Shown here: piece by piece, positions 36,301 through 39,300 of the stretch
Position numbering within the stretch: the stretch's first letter is position 1
Layout: the number at the start of each line of letters is the position of its first letter
NCBI RefSeq assembly: GCF_056712565.1
Contig: NZ_CM160072.1
Length of the DNA stretch: 64,000 nucleotides
Direction: 5' to 3' (one strand)
Program-made: the position numbers

Positions 36301-39300
36301 ACACAATTCCATATTATTGGTGGTAGATACCCCACCCATGGAAAATTCAGACACCAGACCATTGAGTTTTTTAAATGCATAACCGGCTTTATACATTTTG
36401 GCCGCCAGCGCGTAGTCGGACGAAACTTTATATTCCAGGTCATAACGCCATTTTTTCAAGCCGGATACCGGGAAAAATATCGCCTGATGACTGGCGGGCA
36501 GGCTGTGATAAATATACCAGCCCGGTTTGGCGCTACGTTTAATTTTATGCCCGTCGCCAAAATCCAGCAGCGCATCGCCAGTGATCATCACGTTATCTTT
36601 TTGTACTTTTAACTTACGGACAAAATTTGCGGCATCCTGATGAAAAATATCACCTGAGTTGAGAAACAACGCGAACTTGCCTTGTGCCATCGCAATGCCT
36701 TTGTTCATGGCGTCGTAGATACCGTTATCTGGCTCGCTGACAAAGCGTAGGTTATAGATACCCTTGAGATTTTCCAGGTACTCACAGGTGCCGTCATTGG
36801 AACCGCCATCGACAACAATCCATTCGAAGCTGATATCGTCCGCCTGCGCCAGATGCGCCAGATGCGCCAGCGAGGCGTGTGTTTTGACTATCCCTGCGAG
36901 GTTACGAAACGCGACAGTGATTATGCTAAGCAACATGTTCTTATTCTTACCTCGTAATATTTAACGCTTTTCGCAAAATAAACGGACAGACGATTAAAAA
37001 TGCATATTCCGGGCTAAATATCGAACCGGTAAAAAACAGCGATACCGGAGTAAAAAGATATAATTGCACGCGAAAATTGCGGTTATCACCAAAAGCGTTG
37101 ATCATCATTTTTATCACTTTCCCCATGTACCACAGCGATAAAAACACTGCGAACCAGGAAAAATAAATAATCAGCAGATACAAACCATTGTCTATGGTTT
37201 TTCCGACATCCGCACCGTTAAATATTCCGAATGATGCGACATATTCATAAAGTGAGCCAAATCTGACTACACCGTCAATATGGGTCAAAGAATAACCGAC
37301 CATCACCAGCGGACCGACAATACGATAATACGATGACGATCCTTCCGTGCCTAAATCACCCAGACGGGTGGAAATATAAGGAAATGCAATTACCACACCA
37401 ACCAGGAATACAGCCAGAGAAATCAATGCTAACGGTAACTTTTTCTTAATCGCCTCTTTATTCAGATATTGAAATGCCCACTCCAGCAAATAAAACAGGA
37501 TAAAGGTCATAACCCCTGAAAACGATCCGGATAATATTATCCCTGCGAGAATCATAGCATCGGTTTTAGGCGTTTTGATACCAAACTGTTTGATGCTGAG
37601 CCAAATTGAGATTAATGCCAGAGCGAAAAATGCCGGTTCGAAATAAAGTGCTGTCGTGCGCTTGCCGCCGAATTTGATGAAATTCAGCACATAGCTGTTG
37701 CTGTAAATCAGATATTTCGAAATCGATTCCATAATACTGCTGCCGCCGGTGAGGATAATTTGCGCCATCTCCACCGCCGCCAGCGCCACCACCAACCCGA
37801 CCACCAGATAAAAAAAGCGTAATATCTTGCGGTGGTTGTGGGGCGAAATCGTTTTAAAGCGAATACTCCACACCATGCCAATAATGATCACAATATAGAC
37901 AAACAGCATGGTTGAAGTGACGTATTTACTGGCATCCAACGACTGACCAAACAGGTAGTTAAACGCCGTGAGTCCCGCGCCAATCCCCAGGGCAATCATT
38001 AATTTTTTAACGCTGATGCGCTCTAAAAACAGCAGTAACAAGACAGGTAAAAAAGTGACGATGGTGATGGGGAAACTTTCACCAAGCTGGGCGATTTTGA
38101 CGTTAACCAGCAGGTAGATCAGCGGCAGCAGCAGGTAGCTACAGATTCTGATAGAAGTTGACATACTCCTCCAGCATCTGTTGTCCACTGTAGGCGGCAC
38201 GGCTGCGCTGGCTGAACTCAGCCAGCGTGGTACCAAATACCGCCTGCGCGATTTCCGGTTTGCTTAACTGGACCAGTTGCAGCACGTCTTCTTCACTGAC
38301 GGTTTTACCGCCGGATTTTTGCAGCACTTCCCGCGCCGCGTCGCTATGGGTGGCAATCACCGGCACGCCAATCGATAGCGCCTCACACAAAATTAGCGGG
38401 TAGTTATCGACGCGAGAACTGAATACCAGCGCATCCATCTGATTGAGCGCGCTCATCAACTTGCGCTTGTCAGTTTCAAAGCCGTGATTAACCACGTTGC
38501 CAGCGGTGAACGGCGAGAACTTACCAAAGGTATGCAGTTCGATTTTGTCGCCCAGCGCCATCATCTCGCGTACCAGTTGCTGGTTAGTTTTGCCGTCGTA
38601 ACGCAGGTCATGCGCTACCACCGCGATTTTCGGCTTGCCCTGAGTTTCGCGCACCGGAGGCAAGTCCGCCAGAATCGCTTCGGTTGCCATATCAATGCCA
38701 TTATTGATAATCCGGCAACGCCCTGGACCGTACAGACTATTGAAAGCATCAGCCACATGCTGGCTGGGGGAAATAAACTGACAGCCCAGCGCCAGCATCT
38801 CACGGAATAACTGGCGTTTGCCCGCCACCAGCTGGTGTGCGCGATCAATCTTCACCGGCGGATAATTATTTAAGGTCGGGCATTTCTGGCAGCCCGTTTT
38901 CCAGCCTTCGCAACCGTCGGTAAAGGCGCAGCGTCCGGTAACGCTCCAGTGATCGTGCAGCGTCCAGACCAGAGTGACATCCGGTTTGTGGTTTTTCACC
39001 TTTTCGCAAAAGCGCACCACGCTCTTAAGATTTAGCCAGTAGCTGTGCAGCACATGAAAATGCAGAACCACCGGGCCCGGTGTGCGAGTAATGGTGCGAT
39101 ATAACTCATTGAAATTGCCAAACAGATCGCGATTAAACAGACGAAACAGGGCAATGTTCGCCATCGCGGTCATCTGCGGCGTATGTTTGATGACCTGCGG
39201 ATAGTTTTGATTGCTGACGCTCTCTTTGCCGCCTTTGCCGTAGCCGTAGACAAAATGTGACGCCAGCCCCTGTTGCAGCGCACGCTGGTGGAGATCTAAC

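Follow-up and report, generated by a model that had tools for sequence, protein, structure and literature searches.

The gene wcaE, which encodes a GT-A fucosyltransferase of the colanic-acid pathway, occupies positions 36181..36936 on the minus strand of the window (by which we mean the whole 64,000-nucleotide stretch of Escherichia coli DNA that was analyzed), where it takes the form of a 756-bp allele specifying 251 amino acids and can be recognized from its open reading frame (ORF), from the NCBIfam equivalog profile TIGR04009 and from annotated twins. Its product is identical to RefSeq WP_001617116.1 and scores 503.4 bits against TIGR04009 (cut-off 369.2), the equivalog of the colanic-acid GT2/GT-A glycosyltransferase WcaE, residues 1-251 matching profile positions 1-248, and the gene itself has exact (100%) matches in nine complete genomes, where it is annotated as wcaE. 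Both the neighboring ORFs and the annotation of those nine genomes, which carry identical DNA, place it between wcaD and wcaF. The K-12 protein (b2055) is annotated as an alpha-(1,4)-fucosyltransferase, and a Foldseek search with the AlphaFold model of the 251-aa protein agrees with this annotation, since the top hits were WrtF, TarP and SpsA, all GT-A enzymes, and the best structural match was the fucosyltransferase WrtF (9omh, TM 0.73). WrtF (PDB 9omh-9omn) is the closest solved structure and shares the GT-A fold, with 25% identity and an E value of 6e-22 at the sequence level; however, it is a different protein from another pathway, and the alignment begins at residue 32, past the repeat described below, and is uninformative on the insert. 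With a profile score above the cut-off, its position in the operon and a modeled GT-A fold, the 251-aa WcaE is best described as a predicted fucosyltransferase.

What sets this allele apart lies 66 nt into the ORF. The plus strand at 36843-36876 reads cc TGCGCCAGA TGCGCCAGA TGCGCCAG cgaggcg, and on the coding strand the array becomes CTGGCGCAT CTGGCGCAT CTGGCGCAg, corresponding to WcaE codons 23-31 and translated in frame as LAH LAH LAQ. Tandem Repeats Finder returns a single perfect array at 36845-36870 (period 9, 2.9 copies, 26 bp, 100% matches and 0 indels), and this minus-strand feature can equally be followed in the sequence, its translation and the shuffles described below. In the direction of transcription, repeat unit 1 (CTGGCGCAT, Leu23-Ala24-His25) is found at 36862..36870, that is, coding positions 67-75; unit 2 (CTGGCGCAT, Leu26-Ala27-His28) at 36853..36861, where alignment opens a 9-base gap in K-12 and in strain Z0117EC0054; and unit 3 (CTGGCGCAG, Leu29-Ala30-Gln31), the last base of which departs from the unit in the sequence and the alignment, at 36844..36852. 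The extra copy relative to the 747-bp allele may be called either unit 1 or unit 2, a choice that is arbitrary. The original prediction had already described an in-frame 9-bp repeat in wcaE encoding a repeated LAH, which is borne out at codons 23-31; it had placed the array at 36845-36880, with the start and the quoted sequence correct but the end about 10 bases beyond the array.

When the window was shuffled 200 times at the mononucleotide level, the 17-match run seen here at offset 9 was never reached, the longest shuffled run being 11, and the whole 64 kb contains no other perfect array that reaches 2.8 copies at a period above 4. The window allele is a genuine duplication. The standard two-copy wcaE state, on the other hand, amounts to an 8-match run, and because such runs are common (7 in the window and 0.64 per shuffle), the two-copy sequence is unremarkable as a repeat. 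Compared with WcaE of K-12 MG1655, which is encoded by 747 bp and comprises 248 aa, the window protein is an orthologue with the same position between wcaD and wcaF, the same TIGR04009 equivalog assignment and 96% amino acid identity, but it has three more residues (LAH) after residue 22, and the gene carries 27 nucleotide substitutions. It had been suspected that this ORF is a few codons longer than that of K-12 and that the repeat might be responsible; both suspicions were well founded, as K-12 wcaE has one unit fewer and the extra unit accounts for the three additional codons.

How often does the copy number vary? Of 5426 complete E. coli genomes, 4726 have wcaE by full-gene megablast. Nine of these carry a 756-bp gene 100% identical to that of the window, while most others sampled have 747 bp and many of these 747-bp genes match the window fully apart from the 9-bp gap. 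Expansions were sought with a 45-mer query for which 2-copy genomes cannot supply the 28-base seed, so that at least three copies are needed, and this recovered exactly ten 3-copy genomes, the nine window-identical ones and E24377A; the remaining 59 hits are 28-base matches in 2-copy genomes whose serine codon is the synonymous TCT. The same query, which is blind to alleles with a SNP inside the repeat, revealed no allele of four or more copies among the complete E. coli genomes. For contractions, a synthetic 1-copy query was run in sensitive mode, and a contiguous 46-base match was obtained in three genomes (MDR_56, BEC1-S17-ESBL-09 and NCTC9064), the wcaE genes of which are 738 bp long, encode 245 aa and are annotated as intact. 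The tally is therefore 10 genomes with three copies (756 bp, 251 aa), about 4708 with two (the 1.9-copy LAH-LAQ form of 747 bp and 248 aa), three with one, and about 5 in which the 1-copy query matches at 90-99% identity with low coverage and to which no copy number was assigned; these last may have a truncated or disrupted wcaE, as in IH5. Variant alleles thus make up 13 of the 4726 genomes (~0.3%) and the 3-copy form 10 of them (0.2%), with the standard number in >99.6%. In a wider census, counting exact proteins per contig in a collection of 15 billion proteins, the window's 251-aa protein was present on 831 contigs and its 248-aa counterpart on at least 1000, the 251-aa form of E24377A on 2, and 245-aa variants on 304, 13 and 6, meaning that a third 245-aa protein variant exists besides the two 1-copy haplotypes found among complete genomes. 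The expectation that the repeat is polymorphic across E. coli thus proved correct, with alleles of one, two and three units rather than an identical number everywhere. The window allele is a rare derived duplication of a sequence normally present at 1.9 copies, not the standard wcaE repeat, and the site is a low-rate indel hotspot as opposed to a hypervariable repeat.

Short tandem repeats are miscalled by some sequencing platforms, and one could ask whether the extra unit is an error of sequencing or assembly. This idea carries practically no weight, for nine complete genomes, sequenced independently and originating from five countries, contain the same 756-bp gene, E24377A carries the extra unit on a different haplotype, and the exact protein recurs on the 831 contigs mentioned above; such independent replication refutes it.

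The direction of change can be read from the orthologues. WcaE is nearly always 248 aa long in Citrobacter, Enterobacter, Kosakonia, Trabulsiella, Buttiauxella, Leclercia and Scandinavium, and likewise in E. fergusonii and E. marmotae, and a single, strongly conserved S-L-A-H-L-A runs through the orthologues of these genera. Because orthologues are almost all of this length with one SLAHLA, two units are the ancestral state, and the same conservation implies that the helix in which the motif lies, alpha1, is not free of constraint. The near-repeat in the DNA is a by-product of LAHLA being written with the same codons.

From this ancestral state the site has changed more than once. The 3-copy alleles of the window and E24377A differ by 29 substitutions across the gene, the closest of which flank the array at 7 bp on the upstream and 6 bp on the downstream side; the 1-copy state occurs on two haplotypes that are 20 substitutions apart, with 18-28 separating them from the window; and the 2-copy wcaE of Z0117EC0054 shows 0 substitutions against the window. 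With gain as well as loss seen on two or more haplotypes, 18-29 substitutions apart, there have been at least four changes at the site (at least two gains and at least two losses), and each allele change is exactly one 9-bp unit with the frame kept. The view that short in-frame repeats of this kind are substrates for slipped-strand mutation gains support from these one-unit, in-frame steps and from gain as well as loss on unrelated haplotypes, all of which point to slippage as the probable mechanism. The ancestral CTGGCGCAT-CTGGCGCAg (LAHLAQ) has two 8-bp direct repeats (CTGGCGCA) spaced 9 bp, between which misalignment during replication, through slipped-strand mispairing or unequal pairing of sister copies, could add or remove one unit; the expected outcome is a series of three alleles holding one, two or three units. 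The window allele goes back to an in-frame tandem duplication of one CTGGCGCAT unit (Leu-Ala-His). Since then it has been inherited stably, persisting on the O2-linked haplotype in a globally sampled lineage, and the adjacent O-antigen/colanic-acid tract has probably also carried it from one chromosomal background to another. Taken as a whole, an in-frame unit duplication generated by slippage, tolerated without functional effect and stably inherited is the explanation we favor, with a probability of roughly 85%. A hairpin formed by the array and its flanks, for which folding energies of -11 and -12.6 kcal/mol (z -1.8 and -2.3) were calculated, is too weak for a role to be claimed.

The distribution of the 3-copy allele deserves separate consideration. 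The 40 kb around wcaE were compared and all SNPs mapped among the nine 3-copy genomes with the window haplotype plus the nearest genome with two copies; in addition, all genomes were searched with three further segments of the window and with the flank of the first background group below, the source strain of the window itself being absent from the collection. Nine of the ten 3-copy genomes carry the haplotype of the window, which is linked to an O2 O-antigen cluster, and they fall into three chromosomal backgrounds. Group A comprises HM670, FDAARGOS_1298, SFAD3, UID2309220036, AHB19, FCI5 and E5, with 0-3 SNPs among members over 30 kb and ~1% divergence from the window from 41583 onwards, inside wzc; its members originate from the USA, the UK, Thailand, Colombia and China and from humans and a donkey, and all seven keep three copies. 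Group B, represented by Es_ST80, is identical to group A from window position 16181 to 42806 and then diverges, again inside wzc, and group C, represented by APEC E18055, matches the window throughout. Two-copy relatives exist as well: when all four segments were searched, the complete genome closest to the window was Z0117EC0054, which has two copies and whose only differences, besides the 9-bp unit, are three window-private SNPs (27277, 32009 and 40739), and the nearest relatives of group A include the 2-copy genomes EC13, IMT5155 and BEN2908. Window positions 1 to ~41000, from the O2 O-antigen cluster through wcaA, are almost invariant in ~130 genomes.

It is an observation in its own right, and one that sits awkwardly with slippage as the sole account, that three of the four expansion backgrounds (A, B and C) lie on a single haplotype found in ~130 of 4726 genomes. 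Slippage recurring uniformly is not expected to produce such a concentration, which suggests co-transfer with the O2 tract or a factor specific to this haplotype. We regard it as an even bet that one duplication lies behind all nine genomes and was spread to three backgrounds by recombination of the O2 O-antigen/colanic-acid region, leaving only E24377A as independent. The concentration on one haplotype, which recurrent slippage does not predict, speaks for this, as do the identity of A and B across 16181-42806 with separation only inside wzc, the divergence of A from the C lineage at 41583, breakpoints in wzc being typical of O-antigen-region recombination, and the near invariance of the first ~41000 positions in some 130 genomes. 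Against it stands a SNP in wcaC at 39212, absent from groups A and B, which the window has in common with E18055 (three copies) and with the 2-copy genome Z0117EC0054. This SNP demands either that the segment imported into C started, on its left side, somewhere in the 2.3 kb that separate it from the repeat, or that Z0117EC0054 reverted. The nine genomes may instead go back to two or three separate duplications on the window haplotype, no informative SNP telling these alternatives apart. Given the three backgrounds on one haplotype and the breakpoints in wzc, co-transfer would be favored at least for A and B, and lineage C is ambiguous because of the SNP at 39212.

Turning to the protein, the AlphaFold model of the 251-aa form (pLDDT 76.5, pTM 0.79) places beta1 at residues 2-8, alpha1 at 13-30 and beta2 at 36-42, and that of the 248-aa form has alpha1 at 13-27 and beta2 at 34-40; the latter model is confident only over its N-terminal ~100 residues (mean pLDDT 60) and was used solely for the boundaries of alpha1. 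As alpha1 ends at residue 30 in one and 27 in the other, the insert is predicted to be taken up as about one additional turn at the C-terminal end of this helix, where the pLDDT of residues 21-30 is 73 in the 251-aa model versus 86 in the 248-aa model. Within the Rossmann-like GT-A domain it lies upstream of the nucleotide-sugar-binding motif DGGSxDGT, just before the strand that bears this motif, beta2, and far in sequence from SGD, both motifs being invariant in the WcaE alignment. Tolerance would be plausible because leucines at i, i+3 and i+6 keep one helix face roughly hydrophobic, and the models suggest that the extra LAH is most likely accommodated without functional consequence. The original prediction had also called the repeat probably neutral, a reading that fits the position at the end of a surface helix, the intact operons and the established lineages.

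The opposite possibility is that LAH unit number is a functional variant under selection, with the length of alpha1 tuning the activity or stability of WcaE or the way it contacts the membrane or partner enzymes, and that, as part of the same proposal, the 3-copy allele rose in O2 extraintestinal and avian pathogenic (ExPEC/APEC) lineages by changing colanic acid output. The variants are not ephemeral, given the 831 contigs with the 251-aa allele and the 304 with one of the 245-aa alleles, a single pathotype group shows the expansion on three chromosomal backgrounds, and the retention of SLAHLA across genera indicates that the helix matters to some degree. Nevertheless, the 3-copy frequency is 0.2% of complete genomes, and there is no sign of a sweep, because the nearest complete genome has two copies in two of the backgrounds (Z0117EC0054 and EC13), the ST80 background standing outside this comparison. 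Moreover, the insert is located at a helix end, away from DGGSxDGT and SGD, the distribution is accounted for by hitch-hiking with the O2 O-antigen cluster, with no need for selection on wcaE, and a frameshifted wzc in one 3-copy genome suggests that colanic acid export is dispensable there. We therefore consider selection improbable, and its O2-specific elaboration, which shares the same low standing, no less so. Less probable still in our estimation is the specific case of a selected switch of alpha1 length that tunes fucosyltransferase activity or docking with other Wca enzymes; were it true, an altered amount of colanic acid or an altered acetyl-fucose content would be anticipated in O2:K1 extraintestinal and avian pathogenic lineages, and the recurrent gains and losses would reflect selection as opposed to drift.

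A perfect tandem repeat in a surface-polysaccharide gene is also the usual setting for phase variation, and the array might on that basis be viewed as a contingency locus through which WcaE or colanic acid is frequently switched on and off. We find this very hard to credit: a 9-bp unit keeps the frame and all three alleles are annotated as intact, the array has no promoter context, copies range only from 1 to 3 with >99.6% of genomes at one number, and three copies are unchanged across a globally sampled lineage (the seven group A genomes from five countries). A phase-variable locus is contradicted by these data, in which neither a shift of frame or promoter spacing nor hypervariability is seen. 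The scan for promoters and terminators yielded nothing beyond a terminator-like consensus antisense to wcaE at 36862-36880, within chance expectation, and no other function was suggested by the plus strand, by local folding or by the promoter scans. An antisense ORF at 36764..36964 (66 aa) was treated as spurious.

The polymorphism carries little biological weight. It is an ordinary, low-frequency indel variation of a short direct repeat, unit-exact and keeping the frame, and is probably harmless. It is nonetheless a clean small case of unit-exact gain and loss inside a conserved enzyme, in which the ancestral state and the events are documented. The 9-bp insertion, on 831 public contigs, also identifies a sub-lineage within the O2-antigen-linked wca haplotype and might be used for typing or to trace recombination in the O-antigen/colanic-acid region, and the natural series of 245, 248 and 251 aa provides a ready test of how much variation in alpha1 length a GT-A enzyme tolerates. 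No report linking wcaE to tandem repeats or slippage was found in the searched literature, in which the wcaE repeat polymorphism itself is undescribed, although its kind is well known.

That kind can be seen by setting wcaE beside two familiar classes of repeat. With the contingency loci of Haemophilus, Neisseria and Campylobacter it shares the location of a repeat in a surface-polysaccharide gene and the presumed involvement of slippage; in contrast to them, its unit is a multiple of three, so no on/off switching results, its array is short, and close relatives show no hypervariability. The nearer comparison is with the short tandem duplications and low-copy variable-number tandem repeats (VNTRs) produced by slippage. 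Here wcaE differs in its very low copy number (1-3), in the rarity of its variants (~0.3%) and in that its standard "repeat" is a chance-level 17-bp feature imposed by the conserved LAHLA. Yet it displays the whole-unit allele differences and the recurrence at one site that characterize VNTRs, and it has in common with them one-unit indels bounded by 8-bp direct repeats, gain as well as loss, recurrence on unrelated haplotypes and a preserved reading frame.

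As judged from alignments of the related genomes, two recombination breakpoints lie inside wzc, within window positions 41583-42974. When the group A genomes (seven of those that carry the 3-copy wcaE allele) are compared with the window, a divergence of approximately 1% extends from 41583 onward, and when the group B genome Es_ST80 is compared with group A, divergence begins at 42807, both positions being within wzc. Downstream of these breakpoints, the entire tract spanning the O2 O-antigen cluster through wcaA shows almost no variation among ~130 genomes. At three positions (27277, 32009 and 40739) the window carries a private base that sets it apart from each of its ten closest complete genomes, so the strain it comes from is not itself among the complete genomes searched. 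The annotations of the O2 O-antigen cluster in the relatives' loci L005-L014 also include acyltransferase/DapH-like pseudogene fragments and an ISAs1/ISEc1 transposase, corresponding to window ~16590-16970 and 1-12000. Separately, wzc is annotated as frameshifted in the 3-copy genome UID2309220036 (13964-16125 of its locus, L010), and colanic acid export is therefore probably defective in that isolate.

Between yegH and asmA, a RelE/ParE-family toxin and HTH antitoxin pair is encoded on the + strand by ORFs 46882..47220 and 47192..47500. The 745-bp segment containing this pair (46809-47553) is found in the window, in the APEC genome E18055 and in Z0117EC0054, the closest complete genome, which carries a 2-copy wcaE; the group A and Es_ST80 genomes are without it, and their alignment to the window is interrupted exactly at 46809-47553.

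Turning to the 9-bp array in wcaE, the repeat together with its flanks (CGCCT...AGGCG; 36838-36880) has a predicted single-stranded DNA fold of -11 to -12.6 kcal/mol across both strands, with weak z-scores of -1.8 to -2.3, and such a fold could stabilise a slipped intermediate. Other perfect short repeats in the window include TCGC x3 at 28631-28642 and a run of 11 matches with period 9 at 31492.

Among the aligned WcaE orthologs there are also unusual proteins, including P0056 and P0063, two chimeras of 250-251 aa from ENA contigs, in which the first ~75 residues belong to another GT2 enzyme (MH..HPTPKFSIITVTYN...) and the remainder is E. coli WcaE, a composition that suggests a recombinant 5' end. 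Another, the 246-aa P0008, is encoded by a wcaE copy on an E. coli plasmid and contains a scrambled stretch at residues ~137-157 that looks like a compensated double frameshift.
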